Part shown: in pieces, positions 13,215 through 52,488 of the stretch
Position numbering within the stretch: position 1 is the stretch's first letter
How the letters are laid out: each line of letters opens with the position of its first letter
Source of the DNA: a virus
Lineage: Duplodnaviria; Heunggongvirae; Uroviricota; Caudoviricetes
IMG/VR virus record: IMGVR_UViG_3300031963_006119
Strand: one strand, 5' to 3'
DNA length: 64,000 bases
The notes under the pieces: model-generated
Databases searched by the model: none
What the model was told of the DNA's origin: nothing
Seen by the model: only the letters and a program-made list of their open reading frames with translations
Translations under genes and position numbers: made by a program

Positions 13215-13661
13215 ATGAAATACATCACAGCATTGGGGGCAATGCTAGTGTTTGCAGGTAGTGCATTCGCTACAGAGCTAATACATAATTTTCAAAGTCC
13301 AGCCTTTATACCAGGCAATGGATTCAGTCAGCACGTCTTGTCAATCCATCAATTAGAAGAATCTAAAAAGAAAGAAATTAAGAGCGAAGAACTGGCTGCT
13401 ATAGCTAAGGCAGAAGCTGCTGCAAAACAAACAAATCTAAGTAAATTCCTTGTTAACGTAGAAGCACGTATCTACGCACAATTGTCTAAACAATTAGCAG
13501 ATCAAATGTTTGCTGAAGGTACAGGAACAAGCGGAACTATGGACTTTCAAGGAACTAATATCAGTTGGGTTAAATCGGCCACAGAAGTAACTCTAACTAT
13601 TATTGAGGCCAACGGTAGCCGAACAGAAATTACTGTACCTATAGCGAGCTTTGCATTTTAA
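13215..13661 (+). CDS. CsgF-like curli assembly protein
   Basis: Signal peptide then NFQSPAFIPGNGFSQ, matching the conserved CsgF N-terminal FQFxNPxF...G motif. About 130-aa mature size as for CsgF. Confidence 0.55.
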   Translation: MKYITALGAMLVFAGSAFATELIHNFQSPAFIPGNGFSQHVLSIHQLEESKKKEIKSEELAAIAKAEAAAKQTNLSKFLVNVEARIYAQLSKQLADQMFAEGTGTSGTMDFQGTNISWVKSATEVTLTIIEANGSRTEITVPIASFAF

Positions 13662-14908: not shown

Positions 14909-14987
14909 GAGTTAAGCATAGGAGAAAGTCTTTATTAAACTTAAAATTAGATGCATTAACAAACATAACTTGCATCTGGAGCGAAAA

Positions 14988-17778: not shown

Positions 17779-18068
17779 GAAAAATATTATTAATTTTATT
17801 AGTTTGTTTGTCTAGCACAGTCAATGCACAATTTAGATATGATTATCCCTTGTTGTGTGACAGTACTGAAAAGATCATAAAAAGCCTTGGGGAAAATTAT
17901 AAAGAAATATTAACCTGGGGCGGAAAGCATTCTAGTGATAATAGTGCCTACAGTTTATGGATCAATGAAAAAGAAGGATCTTGGACATTACTTAAAATGA
18001 CTCCTGAAACTAGTTGCATACTAGGAGTAGGCACAGAATCTAAAATTAAACTAGGTACGTCAATATAA
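17775..18068 (+). CDS. small secreted protein
   Basis: Signal peptide MRKILLILLVCLSSTVNA; internal Met start overlapping upstream stop. Confidence 0.45.
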   Translation: MRKILLILLVCLSSTVNAQFRYDYPLLCDSTEKIIKSLGENYKEILTWGGKHSSDNSAYSLWINEKEGSWTLLKMTPETSCILGVGTESKIKLGTSI

Positions 18069-33744: not shown

Positions 33745-34066
33745 AGAGCGTAAATTTCTTGCCTATTGGGACTGTCTTGGATTTGAAGGAATCTGGGACA
33801 TCACTACCTACGAGCGCCAAAAGCTTCTAGCTGATCTTAAGAATACTACGGTAACTGCTCCGGTTAATCTTAACGCTATGATGCTGAGAGCTAGATACAA
33901 TCCACAACGTAGTCCTGAGATTTGGTTGTTTACTGCTACTGATACAATTAGGCAAGAAGAGTTAATGGATATTGCTCGAGACAATCCGCAGTATCTTGTG
34001 GACCTAATTCGCGAGCGAGGTACTAGTCTTTATCGTAACACACCGCAGAAACAAGTTATTACATGA
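33737..34066 (+). CDS. hypothetical protein
   Basis: 109 aa. Confidence 0.4.
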   Translation: MIKERKFLAYWDCLGFEGIWDITTYERQKLLADLKNTTVTAPVNLNAMMLRARYNPQRSPEIWLFTATDTIRQEELMDIARDNPQYLVDLIRERGTSLYRNTPQKQVIT

Positions 34067-34698
34067 TTAAGCTACAGGGCAAACTCCCTCGTGATATTGT
34101 ACTGGCCTGTTCAGGCGGTGTAGACTCAATGGCTGCACTAGATTTCTTGCGTAGAAATCATCGTGTAACTGTGGCCTACTTTAATCATAAAACTGAGCAT
34201 GGACAAAAAGCTGGTGCTTGGCTTAGAGAACAATGCCGTACCAAGTATACTGATGTTCGATACAGAGAACACACTATTGAAGGCGAATGTCCAAAAAATA
34301 TGAGCAAAGAAGAATGGTGGCGTAATGAACGCTATGCTTGGTTCAATGGTGAAGCTTGGAAAGGCCATACTGTAGTAACTGCACACCATTTGGATGATTG
34401 TGTAGAGACTTGGATTTGGAGTAGTATGCATGGTACAGCAAAAATTATTCCGTACACTCGGCAAAATGTAGTACGACCGTTTCGCTTAACCAGAAAGAGG
34501 GACTTCGAACTGTGGACAAATTTAAATAACATTGAGTATATAGAGGATGACAGTAATGCAAATATCTGTTATACTCGTAACTATATTAGACATGAGATGA
34601 TGCCGCATGTATTAAAAGTAAACCCAGGCATTCATAAACTTATTGCGAAGAGAGTACGAAATGAAGATTGGACTGAGTTACAGCCGATGTGTGCGTGA
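34063..34698 (+). CDS. tilS: PP-loop ATPase, TilS-like tRNA(Ile)-lysidine synthetase catalytic domain
   Basis: PP-loop LACSGGVDSMAAL. HTVVTAHHLDDCVETWIWSSMHG matches TilS block (TAHHLDDQ.ET). 211 aa, an N-terminal domain only. Confidence 0.6.
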   Translation: MIKLQGKLPRDIVLACSGGVDSMAALDFLRRNHRVTVAYFNHKTEHGQKAGAWLREQCRTKYTDVRYREHTIEGECPKNMSKEEWWRNERYAWFNGEAWKGHTVVTAHHLDDCVETWIWSSMHGTAKIIPYTRQNVVRPFRLTRKRDFELWTNLNNIEYIEDDSNANICYTRNYIRHEMMPHVLKVNPGIHKLIAKRVRNEDWTELQPMCA

Positions 34699-38447: not shown

Positions 38448-38689
38448 TGACAGTTAAAAAAACATACGCAGATACTGTTGATCTGCACTGCACGGATAAA
38501 AATGAAATAGTGCCAGCTGAAATCCTAGAATTTCGCCCAGGCATGCTTATTAGTGTAAGTATACAAAGAAAAATTAAAATGATACTTAAATTTAATCATC
38601 GAGGCAATAACTATGTTGGCTCGATGGCAGGTCTTGAGTTTACTACTGCTGGCCCAAAAGAAACTATTACTTACGAAGGAAGAAGATAA
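38447..38689 (+). CDS. hypothetical small protein
   Basis: 80 aa. Confidence 0.35.
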
Positions 38690-39306
38690 TGCCACTAATC
38701 CCAATGGTTGTTGAACAAGAGACTCGCGGCGAGCGTTCATATGATATTTACAGCCGCTTGCTCAAAGATCGAATTGTTATGCTCAACGGCCCTGTAGAAG
38801 ATAATATGGCTAATGTAATTGTAGCACAGTTATTATTTTTAGAAGCAGAGAATCCAGACAAAGACATTAACCTATATATTAATTCGCCTGGCGGTGCAGT
38901 TACCGCAGGACTAGCTATCTACGACACAATGCAGTACATCAAATGTGATATTCGTACTATTGTCATGGGTCAGGCATGTTCAATGGGCTCGTTCCTAGCA
39001 CAAGCAGGCACGGCAGGTAAGCGAGTAGTACTGCCTGAAAGCCGTACTATGATACATCGAGTTAGTTCAGGTACTCCTGGAACACGTGGTTCAGTTCATG
39101 TACAAGAACTTCAATTTGAAGATGCTATTCGTTCAATGGAAGAAAGTAAAAAACTCAACAAGCGATTAACCGAGCTGTATGTCAAACACAACACCAAAGG
39201 CAAACAATACGATGAGCTTTTTGAAACAATGAAATTTGATACTTTCTTAAATGCACAAGAAGCGGTTGATTACGGTTTAGCAGATAAAGTTGTAGAGAAA
39301 CGATAA
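38689..39306 (+). CDS. clpP: ATP-dependent Clp protease proteolytic subunit ClpP
   Basis: [54 protein letters not shown], catalytic Ser in GQACSMGS, His in MIHRV; near-collinear with bacterial ClpP. Confidence 0.85.
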
Positions 39307-40170: not shown

Positions 40171-40243
40171 TCCTCAGTAGCACAGCGGTAGTTGCACTTG
40201 ACTGTTAATCAAGGTGTCCGTGGTTCGATCCCACGCTGAGGAG
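40171..40243 (+). tRNA. tRNA-Asn (GTT)
   Basis: Manual cloverleaf: acceptor TCCTCAG/CTGAGGA, anticodon loop CTGTTAA, T-loop GGTTCGATCC, CCA encoded. Confidence 0.75.
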
Positions 40244-40251
40244 CCAATTTA

Positions 40252-40338
40252 GGAGCGTGGGCCGGATGGTAAGGCAGCGGTTTGCTAAACCGTAGATCAC
40301 GTAAAAAGGGTCACAGGGTTCGACTCCCTGACGCTCCG
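40252..40338 (+). tRNA. tRNA-Ser (GCT), long variable arm
   Basis: Acceptor GGAGCGT/ACGCTCC, anticodon loop TTGCTAA, 87 nt with extra arm, CCA encoded. Confidence 0.7.
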
Positions 40339-40349
40339 CCAAATTAAAT

Positions 40350-40421
40350 GCACGATTCGTCTATCGGTTAGGACGCTGCCCTTTCAAGGCGGAAAGACGA
40401 GTTCGATTCTCGTATCGTGTA
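40350..40421 (+). tRNA. tRNA-Glu (TTC)
   Basis: Acceptor GCACGAT/ATCGTGT, anticodon loop CTTTCAA, T-loop TTCGATT. Confidence 0.7.
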
Positions 40422-40680
40422 CCAAGTTTTTTAGTAAGTTGTTTAAGGTTACCTAGTCCGCTAGGGGTGAACGAAAAGGTGATTGCGTAGCAGAAATGCT
40501 CGGCCTTGATACCCATGAAGCAGGAGGGTTCTAGAGTATGACGAGACACCATCGAGTCAAAGGGCAAGAACTATTCCAAACTCCAGGAAGGCGGCGGAAC
40601 TACTAGGCCTGTAATGAGGTCTTGACGCAAGTTGGTGATGCGTGTCAAGAACTTCCTCAAACAATTTATTAAAGATTTTG

Positions 40681-40754
40681 CACCGTTAGCTCAGTTGGTT
40701 AGATCGCTTGCCTGTCACGCAAGAGGCCAGGGGTTCGAGTCCCCTACGGTGCGC
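40681..40754 (+). tRNA. tRNA-Asp (GTC)
   Basis: GCACCGTTAGCTCAGTTGGTTAGA..., anticodon loop CTGTCAC, GGTTCGAGTCC, CCA. Confidence 0.8.
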
Positions 40755-40809
40755 CATATTAGTTGACTTTGATTGTAAAGAGTGTACAATTAAAATATAG
40801 AAAGTTTTT

Positions 40810-40880
40810 GCCCTTATAGTTAAATGGTATAACGACGGTTTTGTAATCCGTAGTTTGCAGTTCGATTCTGTGTAGGGGCA
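40810..40880 (+). tRNA. tRNA-Thr (TGT)
   Basis: Acceptor GCCCTTA/TAGGGGC, anticodon loop TTTGTAA, CCA. Confidence 0.7.
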
Positions 40881-40897
40881 CCAAAGTGTTAGTTTTT

Positions 40898-40978
40898 GCC
40901 CCGGTGGTGTAATGGTAGCCACGCTGGTCTTAGAAGCCAGTGCCGCAAGGCGTGTCGGTTCGAGTCCGACCTGGGGCA
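40898..40978 (+). tRNA. tRNA-Leu (TAG), long variable arm
   Basis: Acceptor GCCCCGG/CTGGGGC, anticodon loop CTTAGAA, variable arm TGCCGCAAGGCGTGT, CCA. Confidence 0.75.
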
Positions 40979-40991
40979 CCAATGTTAGTAA

Positions 40992-41062
40992 GCGGGATTA
41001 GTTTAATGGTAAAACAGCAGATTTCCAATCTTCGGTCATCAGTTCGATTCTGATATCCCGCT
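40992..41062 (+). tRNA. tRNA-Gly (TCC)
   Basis: Acceptor GCGGGAT/ATCCCGC, anticodon loop TTTCCAA, CCA. Confidence 0.7.
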
Positions 41063-41081
41063 CCAATTTTAAAAGGTAGAT

Positions 41082-41306
41082 ATGAAAGCAAAAACTTTAA
41101 GTCGTGGTCCAACTATTGATACTAATAAATGTGTTGAAAATGTTGGTGGTAGATTTGATCTAGTATTAATTGCTTCAGTTAGAGCTAGAGAAATAGCAAG
41201 GAAACACAGGAACGACGAAATGTCTACCCAAGTTAATGCGCCAGTTTCTGCACTGCTTGAAATTCAAGAAGGCAAAATTGGTAGAGAGTATCTAAGAAAA
41301 GTATAA
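41082..41306 (+). CDS. rpoZ: DNA-directed RNA polymerase omega subunit homolog
   Basis: RBS AAAAGG. VENVGGRFDLVLIASVRAREIARK matches the RpoZ signature (GNRFDLVLVAARRARQ). 74 aa. Embedded between tRNA genes. Confidence 0.6.
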   Translation: MKAKTLSRGPTIDTNKCVENVGGRFDLVLIASVRAREIARKHRNDEMSTQVNAPVSALLEIQEGKIGREYLRKV

Positions 41307-41327
41307 TCGGAGTGTGGCGCAGTCTGG

Positions 41328-41402
41328 CTAGCGCACCTGGTTTGGGACCAGGGGGTCCAAGGTTCGAATCCTTGTACTCCGACCATTTTTTGGGCTGTTA
41401 GT
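41328..41402 (+). tRNA. tRNA-Pro (TGG)
   Basis: C1-G72 start CGGAGTG as in bacterial tRNA-Pro, anticodon loop TTTGGGA, CCA. Confidence 0.75.
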
Positions 41403-41411
41403 GATAATGGG

Positions 41412-41483
41412 AGCACGGGGCCTTTGCAAGGCTTAGGTCGGGGTTCGATCCCCCGACGGTCCACCAAATATGCGGGTATGATG
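41412..41483 (+). tRNA. tRNA-Ala (TGC)
   Basis: Acceptor with G3:U70 wobble (Ala identity), anticodon loop TTTGCAA, T-arm CGGGGTTCGATCCCCCG, CCA. Confidence 0.7.
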
Positions 41484-41491
41484 TAATGGTA

Positions 41492-41562
41492 ACCTGAAAC
41501 CTTGCCAAGGTTTATTCGCGAGTTCGATTCTCGCTACCCGCTCCAAATGTTTTAGAAATATT
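41492..41562 (+). tRNA. tRNA-Gly (GCC)
   Basis: Acceptor GCGGGTA/TACCCGC, anticodon loop TTGCCAA, CCA. Confidence 0.75.
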
Positions 41563-41594
41563 TTTAAAAAGATGTTGACAAGACAGTAAAAATT

Positions 41595-41623
41595 TGCTAA
41601 AATAGACACATGTTAAGAATTTA
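41595..41623 (+). promoter_or_regulatory. consensus sigma70 promoter TTGACA-17-TAAAAT driving ORF-free region
   Basis: TTGACA 41595-41600, TAAAAT 41618-41623. Confidence 0.5.
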
Positions 41624-41629
41624 AGGGTG

Positions 41630-42830
41630 GTTTATCATCCTGTAGGCGGCTTGCCGTTTACAAAGAATAAGTGTGGCGACACACCCAAAGCTAGAATGCC
41701 TACATACTAGCGCCAGCAATGGTTCACGTAAACAAGCCTGCTCACTACCGCGAGGTAGCGTTCACTCATAAGACCGGTGGATGTAACAGCAAAGCTGATG
41801 TATGGGAAAGAACATTGTTCGACGTGCCGCAAGGAACACGGGGCAGTGAAAAGTAACAGGTGGTGCTGACTTCCATATAAAACCAATCAGTTAGTTGGTA
41901 TGAGAAAGGGTAGTGTACTTGTTCGAGGGGTCGCACCTAAGAGCTCGTATACAATGTAAATGGTTAGTGGGCTGTAGTAATACAGTACACCGATCGTGAA
42001 ACATCACTGAGTAGCTCGCGAGGCAAAAGGTATGTGGTGAGTTGTATTTTGTATTCCAAAAGAGTATGAAGCAACTGAGGCAGCTCATCGCGGTAGGTTA
42101 ATGTAGATCAATGGTAGATCATCTTCCTGTTAAGAAGAATGCTGTCGGTTCAAATCCGATCATTTAAACAAAAATGCAAAGACTGCCTCGGTCGTATGTG
42201 AAAAGTATCTAATACTTGAGTGGTAACACAATCAAGTCTAATGAAGCTCGCAAGGTAACATTAGTTTATACTGGAAGTTTCGTAGGGTGTTAGCGCACTC
42301 GAATAGCTCGCAAGGTTAACGGAATAGATGGTGTAGAATAGCATATGGCGTCAAGTCTACTGCCTGACTTAAAACGGCGATACTGTAAGCAGACTAGGTT
42401 ACATAGTGATATGGACTTAGTGGATGTCTAGAGAACGTATACTCGCAAGGTGTACGGTAATGCTAGAGGTGCTTATGGTTAAGATGTAATCTCAGTCTTA
42501 ACACTATTCTAAAACACATTACCACAAACAGCAATTAGAGCTGGTTGTATAACAATGTCGTAGTGTGTTTCAGAATAGCAGAAATGTTATGCACATGACA
42601 ATTCGTTGTCAGCAAGAGAATGTCACGCTATAAAGGTTTCTTCGAAGGACTGATATAGTAGAAGGGGACGGGTTCAACTCCCGGCTGATCGGAAGATCGG
42701 CGCAGATTGGTTGCTAACTGGACTAGTATCCCAAGTGACGTACCGAGTCCCGCTCGAGCTTGTTAATTCGGGTGAATGGTGCTTATAACGATGGAAGTAC
42801 TAATGAGTTGTCAGCTGTATAATATTTTGA
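41630..42830 (+). ncRNA. promoter-driven ORF-free structured region (candidate large ncRNA) with repeated CTCGCAAGG motifs, degenerate tRNA-like segment and tmRNA-like T-arm
   Basis: No + strand ORF in 1.2 kb of a gene-dense genome. Motif [A/G]CTCGC[A/G]AGG at 42013, 42245, 42305, 42441. tRNA-like 42097-42167. GGGGACGGGTTCAACTCCCGGCTGATCGG at 42664-42692. Confidence 0.35.
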
Positions 42831-42906
42831 AGCGGAGTAGAGGAGTCCAGTCGTCCTCGCTAGTCTCATAAGCTAGAGATCGCAGGTGCGAATCCTGCCT
42901 CCGCAA
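42831..42906 (+). tRNA. tRNA with CAT anticodon (Met or lysidine-Ile2), A1/A72 mismatch
   Basis: Anticodon stem-loop CTAGT-CTCATAA-GCTAG, T-arm GCAGGTGCGAATCCTGC, CCA; long D-loop. Confidence 0.6.
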
Positions 42907-42923
42907 CCAGTTTTATTTTCAAA

Positions 42924-43010
42924 GGAAGCGTGGCAGAGCCCGGCTTATTGCGTTAGTCTTGAAAACTAAAGACTCGAAAGGGTCCGTGAGTTCGAATCTC
43001 ACCGCTTCCG
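42924..43010 (+). tRNA. tRNA-Ser (TGA), long variable arm
   Basis: Acceptor GGAAGCG/CGCTTCC, anticodon loop CTTGAAA, 87 nt, CCA. Confidence 0.7.
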
Positions 43011-43028
43011 CCAGACATTAAAAAATAC

Positions 43029-43057
43029 TTGACAAGTAGACACAAATCATATACAAT
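43029..43057 (+). promoter_or_regulatory. sigma70-like promoter TTGACA-17-TACAAT
   Basis: TTGACA 43029-43034, TACAAT 43052-43057, RBS AAAAGGA before ATG 43084. Confidence 0.5.
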
Positions 43058-43083
43058 TAACACATAGAGAAAAGGACACAAAC

Positions 43084-43656
43084 ATGGAACTTACACTTCG
43101 TAAAGCAAGCGCACTTCAGAACAGCATCAACGATACTGTTAAAAGTATCACGTTGACACAAACAATTCGCATCAACGAGTTCCAAGAGGCTGAAGCTGAA
43201 ATATCTAAGGCTGCTCAGGAATTTAACAGCAATGTGTTTCGTCGTGTAGCACTGACAGATGTGCTGTACGAAATTCGCAAGGCAGTGAGCCGTGCAAATG
43301 CACAAGCAGGTGTCAATGAAAAGTTGGCAGACTTGGCTCAGCTTGAGAAAGATATCCAATTCTTTTCAGGTCTAACAGCTCATGACGTTCGTGAGTCTGC
43401 TCAAGTCATTGAGGGCAAGTTGAATAAAATTCGGAACCGCAAAGAAGACACTCGTGCAAGTTTGTACGGCCACAGTGATGAAGTTAGTACTTCTGTATTG
43501 ACTCGCAAAGATGTAGATACATTCCGTGCAAAAGTAGCAGAAGCCAAAAAGGCCAAGCAGAAATTGCAGGACGAGCTCTTAGAGCTTAATGTTCGTACAA
43601 CTATTGCCCTAAGTGGTAAGGCTGTGGACATTCTTAAGCACGAAGAATTGATCTAA
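43084..43656 (+). CDS. hypothetical coiled-coil protein
   Basis: 190 aa, good RBS, Lys/Glu/Ala-rich helical. Confidence 0.5.
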   Translation: MELTLRKASALQNSINDTVKSITLTQTIRINEFQEAEAEISKAAQEFNSNVFRRVALTDVLYEIRKAVSRANAQAGVNEKLADLAQLEKDIQFFSGLTAHDVRESAQVIEGKLNKIRNRKEDTRASLYGHSDEVSTSVLTRKDVDTFRAKVAEAKKAKQKLQDELLELNVRTTIALSGKAVDILKHEELI

Positions 43657-44165
43657 GGAAAACCCGGGCTCCCTTGCCCGTTATACACAGGGGGTGGGGC
43701 AGTCACCATAAAGAGTGCTAGGCGTGTAGTGCATTGGCCTTCCGATCCCGTGTAGGGAATCCGGGGACGCATTAGGTGAGGTTTAGCACCTTTCCAAAAG
43801 AATAAATGTTATGGACAGAGTAACCGCTCAGTCTAGGGCTCATGTGGTGTGAGTAGCTAGACACTTTATAAATGCTCTTTGAAGTTTAACTACACTTGAG
43901 AACACCAGTAGGTACTAAGTCGACTAACTGCTGAACGTGCAAGGAAGATACGGAGTTAAACAGTTTGGTTCGATTCCAACAGAGAGCACCTATAAGGTTT
44001 TGGTAGTATGCTGGTAACAGTAAACTACCCGGAAGAAGGCGAGAGATGAGGATGAACACCGTTATCGCTTCATGCGATGACTCCAATACTGGCAATCAGT
44101 CTTGAAAACTGATCGTGTTTGTATGCCCCGAATCTATCGAACTTGTGATTTGCTGTTCGGAAATA
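43645..44165 (+). ncRNA. rnpB: RNase P RNA-like (rnpB-like) element
   Basis: GC-rich, ORF-free island. GGAAAACCCGGGCTCCC (43657), CCAACAGAGAGCACC (43976), GCTGGTAACAGTAAACTACCCGGAAGAAGGC (44010) and GCCCCGAATCTATCGAAC (44125), in the same order as M1 RNA motifs AGGAAAGUCCGGGCUCC / CAACAGAGAGCA / GCUGGUAACAG..GGUAAACUCCACCCGGAGCAAGG / ACAGAACCCGGCUUAUCGG. Confidence 0.5.
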
Positions 44166-44302
44166 CGCAAGCCACTGTGCTTTGCATATTGTAATTTGCT
44201 TAGGGCCTAGAGTAACCTCAGCCCGTTTGCACCTTGCACAGTTCATTACTTACTTGCTAACTTTCGTTTTTTTATAAGTAATCTTACAAAGGAGACAAAC
44301 TT

Positions 44303-44977
44303 ATGTATGCAACAGGTGTTTTTCGTTCTGCATCGCAGATTAATAGTGCAATGGGCCGTGTTTACGGACATATGGCACTGGCAGTTATCACATCAATGAT
44401 TGTAAGTTATCTTGTAGGATCAAATACAACGCTGATGGAATTTTTCTTTACAGGCGCAATGAAATGGCTTGTAATCTTTGCGCCGCTTGTAGCCATTCTT
44501 GGCGTTAGCTTTGCAATGGACAAAATGAGTAAGAGTGCGTTACAGCTATTTTTACATGGATTTGCCGCATTAATGGGTCTAAGTTTTGCTACAATCTTTG
44601 TAGTATATAACATGGGAAGCATTGTAAGCGCATTCATGGGAGCTGCCGTTCTATTTGCTACAATGAGTGGCTATGGCTACTTCACTAAACGTAATTTGGA
44701 CGGAGTTGGCCAATTTATGTTCATTGGGTTGATTGCGATTGTTATTGCAAGTATAATCAATATTTTTATTGGTAGTACAGTTTTTCAAATGGTCATTAGT
44801 GCTATCGGAATTATTGTGTTCTTAGGCTTAACAGCATACGACACACAAAAGATTCGTGAGATGGTTAGTTACGACAATGATGGTAAGGCAGAAATTGCAG
44901 GCGCTCTTAGCTTGTACTTAGACTTTATCAACTTGTTCTTAATGTTACTACAACTATTTGGTGGTCGTAAGGACTAA
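44303..44977 (+). CDS. Bax inhibitor-1/YccA family membrane protein
   Basis: RBS AAAGGAGA; 7 predicted TM helices; 224 aa; BI-1/YccA-like N-terminal cytoplasmic segment and terminal basic motif (GGRKD). Confidence 0.6.
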   Translation: MYATGVFRSASQINSAMGRVYGHMALAVITSMIVSYLVGSNTTLMEFFFTGAMKWLVIFAPLVAILGVSFAMDKMSKSALQLFLHGFAALMGLSFATIFVVYNMGSIVSAFMGAAVLFATMSGYGYFTKRNLDGVGQFMFIGLIAIVIASIINIFIGSTVFQMVISAIGIIVFLGLTAYDTQKIREMVSYDNDGKAEIAGALSLYLDFINLFLMLLQLFGGRKD

Positions 44978-44984
44978 AGAATTT

Positions 44985-45056
44985 GCCTGGTTAGCTCAGG
45001 GGTAGAGCAACGCCTTTACACGGCGAAGGTCCGCGGTTCGAAACCGTGACCAGGTA
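44985..45056 (+). tRNA. tRNA-Val (TAC)
   Basis: GCCTGGTTAGCTCAGGGGTAGAGC..., anticodon loop TTTACAC, T-arm CGCGGTTCGAAACCGTG, CCA. Confidence 0.7.
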
Positions 45057-45129
45057 CCAGAAATGTTTCCGTATTCAAGAGTGTGGCAAAAATACAACAA
45101 TATTTTTGTCACTTTTTAAAGAAAATCTC

Positions 45130-45158
45130 TTGACAGAGATAAATAAATACAGTATACT
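45130..45158 (+). promoter_or_regulatory. sigma70-like promoter TTGACA-17-TATACT of short transcription unit
   Basis: TTGACA 45130-45135, TATACT 45153-45158. Confidence 0.45.
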
Positions 45159-45321
45159 ATACACATAGTAAGAAATTAACTAACAGAAAGAAAGATGATC
45201 AAAATGTTTAAGCAAATTAGAAAACATCAGATGTTTTGCATTCGCTGGTATCGACTACCAGGCGAGGGCCTTTCTGTAGGAGCAAGTTACGCATAACCAG
45301 TAACAGCTCAAAAAACAAAAA

Positions 45322-45362
45322 GACCCTCGGAATGTAAAATACTCCGGGGGTTTTTCTTTTAG
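45322..45362 (+). terminator. rho-independent terminator
   Basis: GACCCTCGGA...TCCGGGGG hairpin + TTTTTCTTTT. Confidence 0.6.
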
Positions 45363-45598
45363 TGCTATAGGAAACGAGATCCTGCTATCACTTTAAACTA
45401 GCAAATGGGCGGCCTAGGGGATGAAGTCTGTGGCGACAACACAGATGTTAAAATCCTAGAGTAGTTAAGAACACTATAGGGACGACTGGACTCATAGCCC
45501 AGAACTTTGTAAAAGGCGTTATTAGTGTTCTTAACTACACACTCTTCATTCGCCCTGCGACGGCGTCTAAAAGCATAGCGGAGAGTGTCACTAAGTTT

Positions 45599-45682
45599 GG
45601 AGATGTAGGAAAATTGGTAACCCCAGTGGACTGTAAATCCGCCGCCCTTCGGGCACTACTGGTTCGACTCCAGTCATCTCCA
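45599..45682 (+). tRNA. tRNA-Tyr (GTA), long variable arm
   Basis: Acceptor GGAGATG/CATCTCC, anticodon arm GTGGA-CTGTAAA-TCCGC, 84 nt, CCA. Confidence 0.75.
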
Positions 45683-45690
45683 CCAAACAT

Positions 45691-45762
45691 AGCCGCGTAG
45701 CTCAGAGGAAGAGCACTCGCTTGATAAGCGATAGGTCGACATTTCGAAACTGTCCGTGGCTA
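45691..45762 (+). tRNA. tRNA-Ile (GAT)
   Basis: AGCCGCGTAGCTCAGAGG..., anticodon loop TTGATAA, CCA. Confidence 0.7.
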
Positions 45763-45772
45763 CCAAATTAAT

Positions 45773-45843
45773 GTATCTCTAATGTAATGGCAGCATCACA
45801 GTCTCCAAAACTGTTCGTCGGGGTTCGAGTCCCTGGAGGTACG
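45773..45843 (+). tRNA. tRNA-Trp (CCA)
   Basis: Acceptor GTATCTC/GAGGTAC, anticodon arm ACAGT-CTCCAAA-ACTGT, T-arm CGGGGTTCGAGTCCCTG, CCA. Confidence 0.75.
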
Positions 45844-45853
45844 CCAAGTATAA

Positions 45854-45925
45854 CTCGCTTTAGTATAATGGATAATACAGTAGGCTTCTACCCTACGAAT
45901 ATGGGTTCGATTCCTGTAGGCGAGG
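45854..45925 (+). tRNA. tRNA-Arg (TCT)
   Basis: Acceptor CTCGCTT/AGGCGAG, anticodon arm GTAGG-CTTCTAC-CCTAC, CCA. Confidence 0.7.
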
Positions 45926-45935
45926 CCAGTAATAC

Positions 45936-46010
45936 GCACAGGTGGCAGAGAGGCCCAATGCAGTGGATTGCAAATCCGCAAAACCGTGAGTTCGAATCTC
46001 ACCCTGTGCT
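45936..46010 (+). tRNA. tRNA-Cys (GCA)
   Basis: Acceptor GCACAGG/CCTGTGC, anticodon loop TTGCAAA, T-arm GTGAGTTCGAATCTCAC, CCA. Confidence 0.7.
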
Positions 46011-46135
46011 CCAGTTACTGCAACAATCCGCTCGGGCTTCGTAGCGGAATGTAGTATTGAAGCCTATAAGTCCTGTGGAAGCAGGGGTCTAGATCCGTGT
46101 CCAAAGCGGTGTGGCTAACGAAGTGCCAAATTTAT

Positions 46136-46206
46136 TGGGGTATAGTGTAATGGTAGCACCACAGACTTTGACTCTGTTAGTCTAGGTTCGAACCCTAGTA
46201 CCCCTG
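46136..46206 (+). tRNA. tRNA-Gln (TTG)
   Basis: D-arm GTGT-AATGGTA-GCAC, anticodon arm ACAGA-CTTTGAC-TCTGT, T-arm CTAGGTTCGAACCCTAG, CCA; 1:72 pair uncertain. Confidence 0.65.
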
Positions 46207-46210
46207 CCAT

Positions 46211-46283
46211 AGTGATGTAGCATAGCGGCTAATGTACCTCCTTCATACGGAGTTTATCGTCGGTTCGAGTCCGACCATCACTA
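46211..46283 (+). tRNA. second tRNA with CAT anticodon (Met or lysidine-Ile2)
   Basis: Acceptor AGTGATG/CATCACT, anticodon loop TTCATAC, T-arm GTCGGTTCGAGTCCGAC, CCA. Confidence 0.7.
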
Positions 46284-46304
46284 CCAACTTTAAAGGAGAA
46301 ATAT

Positions 46305-46496
46305 ATGCCAACGATTAGATATCTTGATACTAGTATGTACGGATCGTATTTTGTCGACTGCGAAATATTAGAAAAAATAGACGAAGACACATTTAAGATT
46401 AAATTCTATGATGACAATATAGATGAATATGAAATAAAGGTAGTTGAGCGTGATCGTCTTGAGTTTCCTAAGTTTAGTGATTACGCATCTTATTAA
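46305..46496 (+). CDS. hypothetical small protein
   Basis: RBS AAAGGAGAAA then ATG; 63 aa; sits inside tRNA island. Confidence 0.45.
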   Translation: MPTIRYLDTSMYGSYFVDCEILEKIDEDTFKIKFYDDNIDEYEIKVVERDRLEFPKFSDYASY

Positions 46497-46670
46497 GGAG
46501 AAAACAAAATGGGGCGATCGTAGTTTTACTTATGATAGTAGCTTTAATTTACTTTATTGACAAAAATTTAAAATAGGAGAATGACATGAAACGTTCAAGT
46601 AAACGTTAGTGTCAACCTTGACCCCGTATTGGTCCTGGTTGGCACATTAAATCAATTTAATTACGACCAA

Positions 46671-46743
46671 CCACTTGTAGCGTTAACGGTAGCGCACTTG
46701 ACTCTTAATCAATGAGGTGTGAGTTCGAATCTCACCGGGTGGA
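46671..46743 (+). tRNA. tRNA-Lys (CTT)
   Basis: Acceptor CCACTTG/CGGGTGG (2 G-U), anticodon loop CTCTTAA, T-arm GTGAGTTCGAATCTCAC, CCA. Confidence 0.6.
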
Positions 46744-46750
46744 CCAATAC

Positions 46751-46823
46751 GGGAGTATGGTGAAATGGTTATCACAGCAGACTTTTAATCTGCCAGTTCC
46801 GGGTTCGAGTCCCGGTGCTCCTA
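46751..46823 (+). tRNA. tRNA-Lys (TTT)
   Basis: Acceptor GGGAGTA/TGCTCCT, D-arm GTGA-AATGGTTA-TCAC, anticodon arm GCAGA-CTTTTAA-TCTGC, CCA. Confidence 0.7.
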
Positions 46824-46837
46824 CCATAGATAAACAC

Positions 46838-46935
46838 ACTTTCAATCTGAATTGACAGATACAAACAACCAAGGGGAGCCTCTGGGTTCATCCAGTTTCA
46901 TCCTGAATTGACAGGAACAAGGTTGTAAGGGGAGC
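46838..46935 (+). repeat. two imperfect about 38-bp direct repeats (CTGAATTGACAG..AAGGGGAGCC)
   Basis: CAATCTGAATTGACAGATACAAACAACCAAGGGGAGCC and CATCCTGAATTGACAGGAACAAGGTTGTAAGGGGAGCC, each carrying a TTGACA hexamer. Confidence 0.5.
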
Positions 46936-46959
46936 CGAGTGTGTTTTTCTATGGTAATA

Positions 46960-47031
46960 CGGCCCTTGGTGAAATGGATATCATTTCGGTCTTCGAAACC
47001 GACGGTGGGAGTTCGATCCTCTCAGGGCCGG
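46960..47031 (+). tRNA. tRNA-Arg (TCG)
   Basis: Acceptor CGGCCCT/AGGGCCG, anticodon arm TCGGT-CTTCGAA-ACCGA, T-arm GGGAGTTCGATCCTCTC, CCA. Confidence 0.65.
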
Positions 47032-47041
47032 CCAAATATAT

Positions 47042-47113
47042 ACCCCTGTCGTTCAATGGATAGGATACCATGCTACGAACGTGGGGACGGTGGTTCGATT
47101 CCATCCAGGGGTG
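47042..47113 (+). tRNA. tRNA-Arg (ACG)
   Basis: Acceptor ACCCCTG/CAGGGGT, anticodon arm CCATG-CTACGAA-CGTGG, T-arm GGTGGTTCGATTCCATC, CCA. Confidence 0.7.
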
Positions 47114-47122
47114 CCAATCAAT

Positions 47123-47193
47123 GGTGTTGTTAGTGTAGTGGTAACACGACTGTCTGTGAAACAGTAGACCAGGGTTCGATTCCCGACTTCACC
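47123..47193 (+). tRNA. tRNA-His (GTG) with G-1/C73 but two T-T mismatches in acceptor stem
   Basis: D-arm GTGT-AGTGGTA-ACAC, anticodon arm ACTGT-CTGTGAA-ACAGT, extra 5' G and discriminator C typical of His, CCA; acceptor and T stems imperfect. Confidence 0.5.
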
Positions 47194-47332
47194 CCAAATT
47201 TGTAGTAACCAGCTAGGTGCTGTGTAAAAGGTGTTGCGGATAGTAGAGGTCTCATAGAGATAAGCTCGCTGTCGTTAAAGATCGTGACGCAAACTAATTG
47301 AGTTTTGTCTCAACCTACTACATTTTATTTTT

Positions 47333-47405
47333 GCCGCTTTAGCTGATGTGGTCATAGCAACGGATTGAAAATCCGAGGAACCCTGTTCGATCCGGGGAGG
47401 CGGCA
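47333..47405 (+). tRNA. tRNA-Phe (GAA)
   Basis: Acceptor GCCGCTT/AGGCGGC, anticodon loop TTGAAAA, T-arm CCCTGTTCGATCCGGGG, CCA. Confidence 0.7.
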
Positions 47406-47435
47406 CCATTAACTGTGTATGATTTTATATTATGG

Positions 47436-47510
47436 AGCGACCGGGGGATTCGAACCTCCGCTTCTTGGGTTACAGTCCCAAGTGTAGTGACCACTCTACT
47501 ACGAGTCGCA
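47436..47510 (-). tRNA. atypical tRNA on minus strand (anticodon region ACTGTAA/TGT, C33 or enlarged loop)
   Basis: Reverse complement reads GCGACTCGTAGTAGAGTGGTCACTACACTTGGGACTGTAACCCAAGAAGCGGAGGTTCGAATCCCCCGGTCGCTCCA: clear T-arm/CCA and D-arm GTAG/CTAC but 6-bp anticodon stem or 9-nt loop and imperfect acceptor. Confidence 0.45.
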
Positions 47511-48711: not shown

Positions 48712-49109
48712 TAAAAGAACTATTCGAAGGCCTTGATGAAAAAACAAAAACCTGCGGAATGTGCTTATTGAATCTTCCTTTAGGAATGTTTGGTACAGAT
48801 GGTGGTGCAAAGTATCTTAGATATGAATGTAAACCATGTGCAAAGAAACAATCTGCTTTATTGAAGAAGATAAAATCGACTGCACCTATTAGACCTAAAG
48901 ATTATACATGCCCTATTTGTAACAGAAACGAAGAAGAAGCAAAGGGACACAATCCTAATAAAAAAGGAGTTTGGTGTGCAGACCACGATCATGCTACTGG
49001 AAAATTTAGAGGTTGGCTTTGTCATAAATGTAATTTAGGGTTAGGTAATATGAATGATGATATTAGTAGACTAGAATCTGCTATAAAATACTTAAAGGAG
49101 CGAGTATAA
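48708..49109 (+). CDS. recombination endonuclease VII-like Holliday junction resolvase
   Basis: CxxC...CxxC zinc cluster and [23 protein letters not shown] block characteristic of T4 gp49/Endo VII family. Confidence 0.6.
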
Positions 49110-49576
49110 TGCCTTGGATTGAAAATGTAGCAGCCGCTGATATTCCAACAGGATTCCATCACGACGCCGGCGCTAACAGTATGCTGATCAGTATTGTGGA
49201 TCCTGCCAGCTGGCGTCCTGAAGCTAAACACCAATTCAAAGAGCGTCATAACTTTGAATTTTTAGATGTAGAAGAAAAAGACGAAGTGTTAGAGGAAGCA
49301 ATGAAGTGTAGTCACGAGCAGGCCGCAGAGCTTGTTCGACTGCTACAACACGCATTAGAGAACCGTATGAATGTTGTTGTGCATTGTTATGCAGGCGTAT
49401 GTCGTAGTGGTGCTGTGTGCGAAGTCGGAGTCATGATGGGCTTCAATGACACAGAACGTTTCCGTAGTCCAAACTTGCTAGTCAAGCATCGTATGATGAA
49501 GGCTTTGGGTTGGACATATGATGCTGACGAAAAACCAAACATTGATGATTGGCGTACATTTAGGAGTATTGATTAA
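49109..49576 (+). CDS. dual-specificity/protein-tyrosine phosphatase-like protein
   Basis: CX5R P-loop VHCYAGVCRSGAV. Confidence 0.6.
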   Translation: MPWIENVAAADIPTGFHHDAGANSMLISIVDPASWRPEAKHQFKERHNFEFLDVEEKDEVLEEAMKCSHEQAAELVRLLQHALENRMNVVVHCYAGVCRSGAVCEVGVMMGFNDTERFRSPNLLVKHRMMKALGWTYDADEKPNIDDWRTFRSID

Positions 49577-49767
49577 TGTATCTATGTAGAGAAGAAGTTC
49601 AAAAGATTCTGGACACTATAGACAAGTTTCCGGAGGCTACTAGTTTTGAGTTAATTCAAGACAACCACAGTGGCATTGGTAGTGTTACTGCGCTTATTGT
49701 GCATACCACAATTAACGGACTCCCTGGTGAGTTTAAAACTGAAATATCTGGCGTGGAGAATTGGTAA
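49576..49767 (+). CDS. hypothetical small protein
   Basis: 63 aa. Confidence 0.35.
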   Translation: MYLCREEVQKILDTIDKFPEATSFELIQDNHSGIGSVTALIVHTTINGLPGEFKTEISGVENW

Positions 49768-49988
49768 TGTATAAAACTATGTACAAAGAAGTTGAAGTTG
49801 ATGTTGATCTCAGCGACTTCGACACAGACGACTTAATTGAAGAATTGGAAAGCCGCGGCGCAGGTGTAACCGACTACGGTGATGGCAAAGATATTCTTAA
49901 TGCTATCTACGAAAAACGTAGACTGGGCAAAGACTATCAACAAGATTTAGATCAATTGATTTGGTTGGGTTTAGGGAAGATTCTATGA
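49761..49988 (+). CDS. hypothetical small acidic protein
   Basis: 75 aa. Confidence 0.35.
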   Translation: MVMYKTMYKEVEVDVDLSDFDTDDLIEELESRGAGVTDYGDGKDILNAIYEKRRLGKDYQQDLDQLIWLGLGKIL

Positions 49989-50001
49989 GTGGAGGATTGT
50001 A

Positions 50002-50517
50002 ATGTCTGTGTGTTATCAACTAGTTGGAGTTCCTGGTGCAGGTAAATCTACTTGGCTAGACAATCAAGACTGGATCAAAGGATTTGTTTCATTTGGTCAA
50101 ACTGGAATTAATTACTGGACTCCAAAAAGTGACTACGTAATAGTTTCTACAGATTACTTTGTAGAACGATTTGCTCGTCGAATGGGTTCAACCTATTCGG
50201 AAGTTTTTGATAAGGTAATGCCTAGAGCTATTCGTTTAATGATGCGTCGAGTTCGAAAAGCGCAGTCTGAAGGTCGCCGCATTATTTGGGATCAAACATC
50301 TACAACTTTGGCAAGTCGTAAACGTAAGTTTAATGCCTTGCCAGACTATGAGCATGTTGCTGTAGTGTTTAAGACTCCGGACTGGACAGAATTAGAACGT
50401 AGACTAAGCAATCGTCCTAACAAGATCGTTCCATTAGAAGTTGTTAAAAGTATGATTGATAACTTTGAAATGCCGACTGAAGCAGAAGGATTTAAAGAAA
50501 TCTGGTACGCTGATTAA
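50002..50517 (+). CDS. P-loop kinase-like protein (polynucleotide kinase / zeta-toxin-like)
   Basis: Walker A GVPGAGKST at N-terminus, 171 aa. Confidence 0.5.
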   Translation: MSVCYQLVGVPGAGKSTWLDNQDWIKGFVSFGQTGINYWTPKSDYVIVSTDYFVERFARRMGSTYSEVFDKVMPRAIRLMMRRVRKAQSEGRRIIWDQTSTTLASRKRKFNALPDYEHVAVVFKTPDWTELERRLSNRPNKIVPLEVVKSMIDNFEMPTEAEGFKEIWYAD

Positions 50518-50558
50518 CTGTGGCTTTTTTTTACAACATGCCCTGTCAGTCTATTTGG

Positions 50559-50587
50559 TTGACAGGGCTTTGTCTTGACTATATAAT
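50559..50587 (+). promoter_or_regulatory. sigma70-like promoter TTGACA-17-TATAAT overlapping an inverted repeat
   Basis: CCCTGTCA...TGACAGGG hairpin; TTGACA 50559-50564, TATAAT 50582-50587. Confidence 0.5.
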
Positions 50588-50618
50588 ATATGCATTACTA
50601 AAGATAAGAGAGAAAAAA

Positions 50619-51176
50619 ATGACAACTTGGTTGACTAGTGACCTGCATTTTGGACACGCAAACATTATGAACTTTTGTTCACAAGCAAGAGCAAGATTTC
50701 ATAATGATGTAACGTACATGAACGAAAAAATGATAGAAGAATGGAATGAAACTATTGCTCAAGATGACACCGTTTACATTCTAGGAGATGTTGCATTTCT
50801 TCCAGCTGACAAAGCTGTAAAGATTTTGCAACGATTGAATGGCAGAAAAATTTTGATTGAAGGAAATCACGATCGTAAACTGTTAAATGATCCAGTGTTT
50901 CGTAGATGTTTTGTAGAAATACATCCGTATTTGTGCATTAACTACGAAAAGACTCGTGTAGTAATGTTTCACTATCCTATTGCAGAATGGGATCAAATGC
51001 ATAGAGGTGCTGTTCACTTTCATGGTCACTTACACGGTGGCAAGAGTGGATTAGAAGAATATCGTGCAAGAGACATGGGTATGGATGCAACAGGAATGAT
51101 TGCGGTTACTATGGAGCGAGCCATTGCTGATGCAATGACTGGCAAGGTTAAAGGACACCACACCACTGTTATGTAA
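50619..51176 (+). CDS. calcineurin-like metallophosphoesterase
   Basis: RBS AGAGAGAAAAAAATG; SDLHFGH, GDVAF, GNHD, HYP, HGHLH motifs. Confidence 0.65.
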   Translation: MTTWLTSDLHFGHANIMNFCSQARARFHNDVTYMNEKMIEEWNETIAQDDTVYILGDVAFLPADKAVKILQRLNGRKILIEGNHDRKLLNDPVFRRCFVEIHPYLCINYEKTRVVMFHYPIAEWDQMHRGAVHFHGHLHGGKSGLEEYRARDMGMDATGMIAVTMERAIADAMTGKVKGHHTTVM

Positions 51177-51179
51177 GGA

Positions 51180-51689
51180 GTGATTATGACAATCGTAGAA
51201 AGAGCTAGGGTATTTGCAACAGCGGCACATTCAGCTGTAGCTCAACTTCGTAAGTACACAGGTGAACCATACATCGTTCACCCTGCTGAAGTTGTTCGCA
51301 TTGTTAGTACAGTGACTCACACTGACGCAATGTTAGCGGCGGCTTGGTTACATGATGTTGTAGAAGACACTGGTGTTACTAACGAAGTGATCCGTGCTGA
51401 ATTCGGAGACGAAGTTGCAGAGTTAGTGGGATGGTTAACTGATGTTAGTCGTCCTGAACAAGGCAATCGAGCTGTGCGCAAGGCTATTGACAGGGCACAC
51501 TCTGCTATGGCACCGGCAGCGGCGCAAACAGTAAAGTTAGCTGACTTAATCTCTAACACTCGTAGTATTATGGCACACGATGAAAAGTTTGCTAGAACAT
51601 ACTTAGAAGAAAAGAGATTGTTGTTAGAAGTAATGACTAAGGGCGATCCTGTGTTATTAGCTGAAGCTAGAAAGAATATCAGCAAATGA
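51180..51689 (+). CDS. HD-domain phosphohydrolase
   Basis: H...HD motif (AAHSA...AAWLHDVVED), 169 aa. Confidence 0.55.
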   Translation: MIMTIVERARVFATAAHSAVAQLRKYTGEPYIVHPAEVVRIVSTVTHTDAMLAAAWLHDVVEDTGVTNEVIRAEFGDEVAELVGWLTDVSRPEQGNRAVRKAIDRAHSAMAPAAAQTVKLADLISNTRSIMAHDEKFARTYLEEKRLLLEVMTKGDPVLLAEARKNISK

Positions 51690-51777
51690 CATATCGTCAG
51701 TACTATTGGCGAGAGATGATGAGAGCTCTCAAGGCTTTCATCATCTACTCACGGGGATTCATTTTAGGTAAACGTAT

Positions 51778-51939
51778 ATGAAAATTAAATTTGATAAAGA
51801 AACTATGCCCGACGAATTGTATAATGCACTACTACAGCATTTTGTAAATGAAGCAGTTGGACTAGGAGTAGAAGTAACCAAGCATACTCGATTTGAAGAT
51901 TGGGTAGTTGAGTGCAACATCAAGGTACCATTACAATGA
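51778..51939 (+). CDS. possible small protein (53 aa, below ORF-track cutoff)
   Basis: ATGAAAATTAAATTTGAT... ORF in otherwise empty 220-bp gap; weak RBS. Confidence 0.25.
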   Translation: MKIKFDKETMPDELYNALLQHFVNEAVGLGVEVTKHTRFEDWVVECNIKVPLQ

Positions 51940-52115
51940 AGGACGAAAGTCATTTACCAGTAGCAGAACAGAGTCTAGTTTTTCGTTTGCGTAAGCGAGC
52001 AGAAATACGTAGGCAAATTAAAGATCGTAAATCAGTGCAAGAAGGTGCCAATGATCGCATTGCGGATCTCTTAGAGGAAGCCGCTAACGAAATTGAAAGA
52101 CTGCAAAATGAGTGA
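51912..52115 (+). CDS. hypothetical small protein (start uncertain)
   Basis: 67-aa ORF, coiled-coil-like. Confidence 0.3.
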   Translation: MQHQGTITMKDESHLPVAEQSLVFRLRKRAEIRRQIKDRKSVQEGANDRIADLLEEAANEIERLQNE

Positions 52116-52482
52116 ACTATATCAATATATATTTAGCGACTATGCAGGTACTGGAGAAGGGCGCACCATGTGCGTTCTAATCACACGAGCATATCCAAAA
52201 AAAGATGACTACGAAGTACAACCAGATTTTGTTACAGACGAAACAGGTAAAATGGTGTATGTTCCAGGCAAACTAAAGCATAGTCAAAAATTTATTGCGG
52301 CTAGAGAATTCAAAGAACGATTTGGAGACTTCTATATTCATTTCGCAGAGAATTTGAGCAAGGAAGACTTCTTAACCAGATCTGGTAGACTTTTACCTGA
52401 AATGGTGTTAAAATTAGTTAACAGTGAGGATCAGCCTGGCAATCTTTACTTTGCACAAGAATTCCATTTTAACTTTAGCTGA
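52093..52482 (+). CDS. hypothetical protein
   Basis: 129 aa. Confidence 0.4.
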   Translation: MKDCKMSELYQYIFSDYAGTGEGRTMCVLITRAYPKKDDYEVQPDFVTDETGKMVYVPGKLKHSQKFIAAREFKERFGDFYIHFAENLSKEDFLTRSGRLLPEMVLKLVNSEDQPGNLYFAQEFHFNFS

Positions 52483-52488
52483 GGACAT

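Follow-up and report, generated by a model that had tools for sequence, protein, structure and literature searches.

A GOLLD RNA within the tRNA array

The viral DNA analysed here (IMG/VR record IMGVR_UViG_3300031963_006119, Caudoviricetes; 64,000 nucleotides (nt), hereafter the window) contains an array of 28 transfer RNA (tRNA) genes at 40171-47509, as called by ARAGORN, and within this array lies a stretch without open reading frames (ORFs) that is the subject of this report. The stretch holds two structured RNAs, namely a full-length member of the GOLLD family with a tRNA-Asn embedded in its linker and, downstream of it, a smaller RNA that we call module B. The GOLLD family membership, the covariation-supported folds of both RNAs, their independence of each other and the non-coding nature of the stretch are documented below. 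Together with a promoter upstream and two tRNA genes downstream, these RNAs very probably constitute a non-coding unit of the phage tRNA array, in the order promoter, GOLLD with tRNA-Asn, module B, tRNA-Met and tRNA-Ser. A preliminary description of the locus, made from the letters of the sequence, had proposed a promoter-driven, non-coding and highly structured large RNA with GNRA-type loops. This proposal is supported, with GOLLD as the family, and every element that it named was located to within one base. The features of the unit are the following.

41575-41603, plus strand: sigma-70-type promoter, with the -35 element TTGACA at 41575-41580, a 17-nt spacer and the -10 element TAAAAT at 41598-41603.
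41610-42033, plus strand: GOLLD 5' domain of 424 nt, lineage-variable and outside the Rfam model, delimited by comparison with relatives.
42034-42498, plus strand: conserved 3' region of GOLLD (RF02032), made up of a first hairpin, a variable linker and a pseudoknotted 3' core.
42097-42169, plus strand: tRNA-Asn(GUU) in the GOLLD linker, called by ARAGORN and matched by Rfam RF00005 with 57.4 bits (threshold 29).
42501-42580, plus strand: GOLLD terminal hairpin with a variable tip and the stem CUAUUCU-A-AAACACA ... UGUGUUU-C-AGAAUAG, past the end of the Rfam model.
42593-42816, plus strand: module B, the second structured RNA, of about 220 nt, matched by covariance model R1 with 237 bits.
42831-42909, plus strand: tRNA-Met(CAU), called by ARAGORN and Rfam, near the end of the unit.
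42924-43013, plus strand: tRNA-Ser(UGA), called by ARAGORN and Rfam, the last gene of the transcription unit.

The GOLLD RNA family reportedly goes back to Weinberg et al. in 2009, and its presence here was recognised directly by the search that the preliminary description had recommended, a cmsearch run against the full Rfam library. In a scan of the whole window, RF02032 (GOLLD) matched at 42034-42498 with 201 bits (E 3e-55), above its gathering threshold of 150 bits, and the match spans positions 1-416 of the 416 in the model. The same model scored 190-238 bits in all 12 of the related loci that have the conserved GOLLD block. The ORF-free stretch is mostly a full-length GOLLD RNA, extending from 41610 to about 42582. 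As had been claimed, it holds no ORF, the longest stop-free run in 41604-42830 being 53 codons on the plus strand and 68 codons on the minus strand. Upstream of the modelled part, about 18 related loci share the 5' domain at 75-92% identity from about 41610-41620 onward, and its predicted fold of 125 pairs shows compensatory changes in 50 of them (RNAalifold, 10 sequences). Besides a score above threshold over the full model, the RNA has the two-domain layout of the family, with a structured and variable 5' region of about 400 nt, and it occurs in a phage, near a tRNA island and with a tRNA in its linker.

Past the end of the Rfam model, the RNA continues into the terminal hairpin, which has a minimum free energy of -27 kcal/mol. 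The stem of this hairpin is kept in 10 of 10 relatives, with one compensatory change (AUUCU/AGAAU to AUUAU/AUAAU), and its apex varies. Weak microRNA-precursor-like Rfam matches in the region are explained by this hairpin. Because the next tRNA of relatives starts only a few nt past it, we place the end of the GOLLD gene at about 42582. The motif RCTCGCRAGG, to which the preliminary description had drawn attention, occurs exactly four times in the 64-kb window (42014, 42246, 42306 and 42441), always within the region, compared with 0.08 occurrences expected by chance, and none of 100 shuffles reached four. The interpretation of CUCGCAAGG as tetraloop hairpins holds for the copies at 42246 and 42306, which align to conserved hairpin loops of the Rfam model. 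At 42441, CUCGCAAGG sits in an expansion hairpin (42430-42465), and the first motif, CUCGCGAGG at 42014, is located in the 5' domain.

Two relatives carry natural variants of this RNA. The GOLLD of L042 (4254-4984 of that locus) is without about 177 nt of the 5' domain, equivalent to 41785-41961 of the window, and is 91-93% identical over the rest, such that this deletion could reveal which 5' helices are dispensable. L189 has, from its position 1405 on, a variant of 94% identity in which the block of GOLLD, tRNA-like RNA, tRNAs and a 190-amino-acid ORF is preserved. A different promoter (TTGACA-17-TATAAT, 1198-1226) lies about 190 nt upstream of that block, and protein genes, not tRNAs, surround it.

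The cloverleaf in the linker of the window GOLLD passes both the tRNA model and ARAGORN. Its acceptor stem had been described as poor, and the mismatches G1.A72 and U3.U70 confirm this; a role in translation is only putative. Rather than a degenerate tRNA, as had been suggested, it scores as a bona fide tRNA and represents a known, conserved insertion in the GOLLD linker. ARAGORN found an embedded tRNA at the same GOLLD position in 10 of 10 further relatives, eight of them Asn(GUU) and two Lys, and the acceptor stems of the embedded tRNAs in relatives are consistently AU-rich and imperfect. Because a canonical tRNA-Asn(GUU) is also present in the window (40171-40246, ARAGORN), the embedded copy is redundant for decoding.

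The promoter was found as previously claimed, TTGACA-17-TAAAAT, and matches the consensus at 11 of 12 positions, with an extended TG at 41595-41596 and a predicted transcription start at about 41610. Between 39500 and 48000, six plus-strand promoters match at 11 of 12 positions (39684, 39942, 40035, 41575, 43029 and 45130), splitting the tRNA array into short transcription units. The next consensus promoter after tRNA-Ser(UGA) is the one at 43029-43057, and no intrinsic terminator was predicted on the plus strand between 41604 and 43029. Among relatives, L022, L029 and L189 have consensus promoters of their own upstream of GOLLD. At the end of the array, a weak tRNA-Thr(UGU) (47433-47509, 31 bits) stands alone on the minus strand and duplicates the plus-strand tRNA-Thr(UGU) at 40810-40883.

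A second structured RNA, module B

The region had been regarded as a single RNA. BLAST comparison with 78 related loci instead resolved two separately conserved blocks, 41610-42529 and 42607-42802, and the two RNAs present, GOLLD and module B, are independent. In L004, module B lies 1.3 kb upstream of GOLLD with tRNAs in between, and many loci have GOLLD or module B without the other. The element GGGGACGGGTTCAACTCCCGG (42664-42684), likened previously to a T-arm at the 3' end of transfer-messenger RNA (tmRNA), is indeed present and T-arm-like; it is part of module B, and neither of GOLLD nor of a tmRNA. The exact 21-mer GGGGACGGGTTCAACTCCCGG recurs in 32 viral contigs. A profile search recovered about 100 copies of module B in the fetched loci, 75 of them distinct. 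Covariance model R1, built from 45 copies, yielded 76 strong matches among the fetched phage loci, one per locus and with 108-263 bits, and no match in the T4 tRNA cluster or in loci without module B.

In most phages, module B begins directly after the CCA of one tRNA and stops a few bases before the next tRNA, and the flanking tRNAs have many different identities. Because it abuts tRNA ends and its flanking identities are so varied, we describe module B as a cassette in a tRNA slot, with a size of about 220-240 nt across the family. Searches of the window copy and of the copy in L135 against Rfam at E<=10 found no family, the sole match being a 15-nt T-arm, and a search of a literature library for a tRNA-like RNA of this kind in phage tRNA arrays found none described. 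A pattern scan of bacterial genomes returned only four contigs, all from metagenome-assembled genomes, and module B is present in three of these, which are probably mis-binned phage fragments. Module B is, on comparative sequence grounds, an uncatalogued tRNA-mimic RNA that recurs in many uncultivated phages. ARAGORN also reports CUA-anticodon tRNAs (amber-suppressor-like, printed as tRNA-Pyl) near module B in L053, L105 and L149. The parts of module B, in 5' to 3' order, are the following.

42596-42607 with 42802-42813, plus strand: closing stem P1, which covaries.
After P1, plus strand: invariant single strand GUCAGCAAG, from comparison of members.
Following element, plus strand: P2, GUCAC/GUGAC, in the consensus structure.
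42627-42659, plus strand: P3 hairpin, with the apex CUUCGAAG or GUUCGAAC.
Between P3 and the T-arm, plus strand: short GGG/CCC stem, in the consensus structure.
42669-42714, plus strand: tRNA-like core, made up of T-arm, acceptor-like stem and D-like arm.
42669-42683, plus strand: T-arm, CGGG-UUCAACU-CCCG.
42684-42701, plus strand: acceptor-like stem of 7 base pairs, GCUGAUC/GAUCGGC, with a GGAA loop.
42702-42714, plus strand: D-like arm, GCAG-AUUGG-UUGC.
3' of the D-like arm, plus strand: conserved CUGGAC hairpin, then P6 and P7, in the consensus structure.
42753-42758, plus strand: palindrome CUCGAG (GCUCGAGC as octamer) in the P6 loop, a candidate self-pairing (kissing) site.

The fold of module B is supported by covariation. 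When 45 sequences are aligned with MAFFT alone, 94% of the cells pair, compared with 81% in shuffles and about 40% when the partners are slid, and compensatory changes occur in 33 of 58 pairs. Fitted to the model, the alignment (79 rows) has 96.9% of its cells paired and compensatory changes in 44 of 55 pairs. The T-stem, the acceptor-like stem and the D-like stem all covary. The 3' domain exists in two alternative versions, both of which retain P6 and P7, and a search for extra covarying column pairs (pseudoknots) recovered only this split between 3'-domain types, with no new pairs. All T-loops read UUCRANY, and GG terminates the D-like loop of nearly all members; on this basis module B shows the features of a tRNA elbow. 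A GNRA loop caps the acceptor-like stem of most members, such that module B, as transcribed, would not be aminoacylatable.

Two loops of module B are self-complementary. The P6 loop contains a perfect palindrome of 6-8 nt in 76 of 76 members, in 11 different sequences that include CUCGAG, CCCGGG, GCCGGC, ACCGGU, GUCGAC, UCCGGA and CGGCCG, and the self-complementarity is retained in 97% of cells (helix 13 of the MAFFT alignment). Since a single such hexamer has no way of folding back on itself, the pattern is most simply read as selection for the pairing of one copy of module B with another. The apex of P3 is also a palindrome, of 8 nt, in nearly all members (CUUCGAAG in 51 and GUUCGAAC in 21), and may be either a plain UCGA-loop hairpin or a second self-pairing site.

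Relation to tmRNAs, introns, GOLLD and Y RNAs

A permuted two-piece tmRNA and an intron remnant were among the explanations offered in the preliminary description, and neither was borne out. Read as a tmRNA, 42600-42830 would be a circularly permuted two-piece form with the T-arm/acceptor piece first, as in alphaproteobacteria and in Melnitz, and we consider this highly improbable. The T-arm of module B does resemble that of tmRNA, the order of T-arm, acceptor stem and D-like element is the topology of permuted pre-tmRNA, and two-piece tmRNAs occur in distant relatives (Melnitz, PMC9004378; L022, L029, L057, L146 and L168). The neighbourhood of a tRNA array is likewise shared with the permuted tmRNAs of Melnitz-like phages, L022, L029 and L057. 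However, none of the tmRNA models searched (RF00023 and the alpha, beta, cyano and permuted forms in Rfam) reached its gathering threshold anywhere in the window or gave a match to the region at E<=10, and ARAGORN called no tmRNA in the window, though it detected permuted tmRNAs in relatives. Unlike those tmRNAs, module B has no CCA, no pseudoknots and no tag ORF, a search for a tag reading frame having found none. Its acceptor is closed, the 4-nt GNRA loop on the acceptor-like stem of most members leaving no room for a discriminator and CCA, and its position 3:70 is U-A and not the G-U pair (G3:U70) of alanine identity. Because L057, L146 and L168 carry both module B and a genuine permuted tmRNA in the same array, module B is not the tmRNA of the phage, and model R1 finds no match in L022 and L029, which also bear tmRNAs. 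The permuted tmRNAs of L022 (8420-8774), L029 (10109-10462), L057 (5451-5889), L146 (3588-3991) and L168 (4118-4489) are of the betaproteobacterial type, with tags such as ANDEQFALAA, and those of L022 and L029 are recognised by Rfam; the 64 kb of the window have no tmRNA. A degenerate group I/II intron remnant, or a frameshifted protein gene, has a negligible probability. In its favour, large ribozymes and introns typically have GNRA loops and dense secondary structure, and intergenic gaps of this length are unusual in a dense genome. However, no intron family gave a match in 41540-42920 at E<=10, nothing of the stretch is left over once GOLLD, tRNA and module B are assigned, the substitutions among relatives are pair-compensating and not codon-like, and stop-free frames do not exceed 68 codons on either strand. 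There is no tmRNA, intron or hidden gene in the region.

Module B might also be a lineage-specific 3' extension of GOLLD, the two working in one molecule. The order of GOLLD, short gap, module B and tRNA-Met is kept in the window, L098 and L118, and neither a terminator nor a promoter separates the two RNAs, yet this reading is very unlikely. Module B has another place in the array in most phages: tRNAs stand between module B and GOLLD in L001, L004, L062 and L074, module B occurs without GOLLD in the 10-15 kb flank in L052, L057, L059 and L060, and the reverse case is found in L022 and L029. In addition, module B has its own covarying closing stem, P1, and fills exactly the slot that a tRNA fills after GOLLD in relatives. 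It is unlikely, too, that module B is a phage YrlA-type Y RNA, a tRNA-mimic scaffold that tethers Ro60/Rsr, though here the resemblance extends to architecture. Like YrlA (Chen et al. 2014, PMC4201824), module B is a tRNA mimic in which a T stem-loop, an acceptor-like stem-loop without a free CCA and a D stem-loop follow each other in this order (42669-42714), and it ends in a helix on the anticodon side, as YrlA does (PMC4201824). YrlA RNAs are known in phages, and the acceptor stem of Mycobacterium smegmatis YrlA also has 7 base pairs (PMC4201824). On the other hand, no Rfam family, including any Y RNA or YrlA model in the library, matched at E<=10 in the two members searched, and the Ro60-binding motif GNCGAAN0-1G is absent, the nearest sequence being UUCGAAG, with U for G two bases before CGAA. 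YrlA genes adjoin rsr, whereas the neighbours of module B are tRNA genes in all loci; no adjoining Ro60/Rsr gene was found within the window, where Pfam covered 50 of the 51 ORFs that reach 150 amino acids and detected no TROVE/Ro60 domain in them. Unlike YrlA, module B has three extra helices (P3, P6 and P7), a palindromic loop and a location between tRNA genes, and it is about twice the size. Module B is thus probably not a member of the YrlA family, although YrlA is its closest known architecture. The species 1 and 2 RNAs of T4 (rnaC and rnaD), stable RNAs of 119-139 nt in the T4 tRNA cluster, are like module B in being non-tRNA RNAs placed head-to-tail with tRNAs in a T4-like phage. Homology with them was rejected, as there is no sequence or model R1 similarity, and the likeness is one of positional analogy only; unlike module B, in which the T-arm is internal, rnaC has its T-arm (ACCGGGTTCGAATCCCGG) at the 3' end.

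Phage context and biological meaning

The phage itself has no close isolated relative among the genomes searched. BLASTN of the whole region against 50,697 phage genomes gave no match, megablast of 24 kb against isolated phages gave only tRNA-sized matches, and TBLASTN of the neighbouring 190-amino-acid ORF against isolates gave none. Metagenome contigs of 85 and 129 kb share 6.5 kb with the window at 100% identity, and judged by the CHASE2-cyclase protein of the window the nearest isolates are Melnitz, a T4-like Methylophilales phage (53% amino-acid identity), and Pelagibacter phage HTVC008M (35%). Within the tRNA array, an ORF of 74 amino acids (41082-41306, plus strand) has an RNA polymerase omega/Rpb6 domain (PF01192, E 1e-10), and a phage-encoded omega subunit is unusual. 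A TilS-like PP-loop ATPase (34063-34698, plus strand; PF01171, E 5e-27) co-occurs with two CAU-anticodon tRNAs (42831-42909 and 46211-46286), one of which may be a tRNA-Ile2 that is lysidine-converted by the phage itself. Auxiliary genes of the window (10199-11432, 13661-16704, 18068-20113, 38689-39306, 44303-44977 and 49109-53805) comprise heme oxygenase and bilin reductase; CsgG, a curlin-like protein and FecR; a CHASE2-adenylate/guanylate cyclase; ClpP; a Bax1-I membrane protein; and a DSP phosphatase, an AAA_33 kinase, an HD_4 hydrolase and an ATP-dependent DNA ligase.

The best characterised point of comparison for the window GOLLD is env-38, whose structure was determined by cryo-electron microscopy (PDB 9MEE) as a homo-oligomeric cage, a 14-mer (PMC12286853). 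The Rfam GOLLD model corresponds to the '3end' of env-38, residues ~421-833, in the supplementary alignment of that study; the 5' region of 420 nt upstream of the modelled part is poorly conserved, and the 5' regions of GOLLD RNAs are stated to diverge (PMC12286853). The window RNA is like env-38 in having a variable 5' domain of about 420 nt and a conserved 3' region, and it shares with known GOLLD RNAs the conserved CGCAA-type loops, the location in a phage tRNA array and the tRNA in a variable linker. It differs from env-38 in the extra terminal hairpin past the 3' end of the model and in the expansion hairpin. The linker of env-38 faces the interior of the cage (PMC12286853), and several roles have been proposed for the cage on this basis, namely to expose, store or withhold tRNA (PMC12286853; PMC12990946). 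Although tRNAs embedded in GOLLD linkers have already been reported (PMC12286853, PMC12990946), the one described here is unlike those in being an Asn(GUU) whose acceptor stem is mismatched and of which the array has a canonical copy as well. As cited in PMC12990946, Morgado et al. 2020 found an embedded tRNA-Phe in the GOLLD of Mycolicibacterium/Mycobacterium. To the extent of that citation, both cases have a tRNA in a single-stranded linker within a tRNA array, and the idea of 'inhibited storage' is equally applicable here. As far as the cited account goes, the present case differs in its tRNA identity (Asn, with Lys in two relatives, instead of Phe), in its host clade (the tmRNAs of relatives are of the betaproteobacterial type) and in its setting, a virulent-type T4-like phage related to Melnitz and not a chromosomal array. 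According to the citation in PMC7567579, GOLLD RNA was dispensable for phage production in the sole case tested.

Several observations count against the interpretation of the locus as a unit that yields a GOLLD cage and a self-associating module B. Global alignment of the 5' domain of the window GOLLD with that of env-38 was no better than with shuffles, and since the two are unlike in sequence, cage formation is extrapolated from a distant member of the family; the 3' domain of a Streptococcus GOLLD has, moreover, a different stoichiometry (PMC12990946). The sequence of the promoter at 41575-41603 is not kept in relatives, and the transcript ends of GOLLD and module B are predicted ones. With regard to module B, the best covariation numbers come from the fit to its own model, an alignment that leans to the model, and the single-sequence fold is only modestly better than shuffles (z = -1.9), so that the support for its structure is comparative. 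Self-association through the P6 palindrome, which module B may undergo, is deduced from the constant palindromy of that loop.

With these points in mind, we propose how the unit could work. Host RNA polymerase would produce one precursor from the promoter at 41575-41603, and the nucleases that mature the flanking tRNAs would release GOLLD and module B from this polycistronic RNA; in relatives, both GOLLD and module B abut tRNA ends. By analogy with env-38, copies of GOLLD would then form a homo-oligomeric cage that has the linker, and with it the embedded tRNA-Asn, on its inner side and that might serve to store the tRNA, to shield it or to sequester a tRNA-binding partner. Module B would present a non-chargeable, tRNA-shaped elbow, and might associate with further copies of itself by the P6 loop. 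We infer that module B is probably a stable mimic or decoy, or a scaffold, for some tRNA-binding factor during infection. In our judgement there is an even chance that it represents a new, previously undescribed class of phage RNA, with a non-chargeable tRNA-shaped core and two self-complementary loops that could allow dimers or higher-order RNA-only assemblies like those of GOLLD, ROOL and manA, and that it decoys, scaffolds or catalyses on a tRNA-binding factor.

The feature originally flagged at this locus is real and mostly explained, being a GOLLD RNA that is new to a known family and of an already known variant, that with an embedded tRNA; module B is the unexpected part. For the family, the window GOLLD adds a well-delimited member with a predicted start and end, and its conserved embedded tRNA-Asn, which has a weak acceptor stem and duplicates a canonical gene, offers a useful natural case in which to test whether GOLLD cages store or hide tRNA, as has been proposed. 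Module B is widespread and strongly covarying, and has so far been seen only in uncultivated phages. RNAs of this kind are currently sought, both for RNA-only quaternary assemblies and for the action of phages on host tRNA biology, and the 75 natural variants of module B are ready for structure work.

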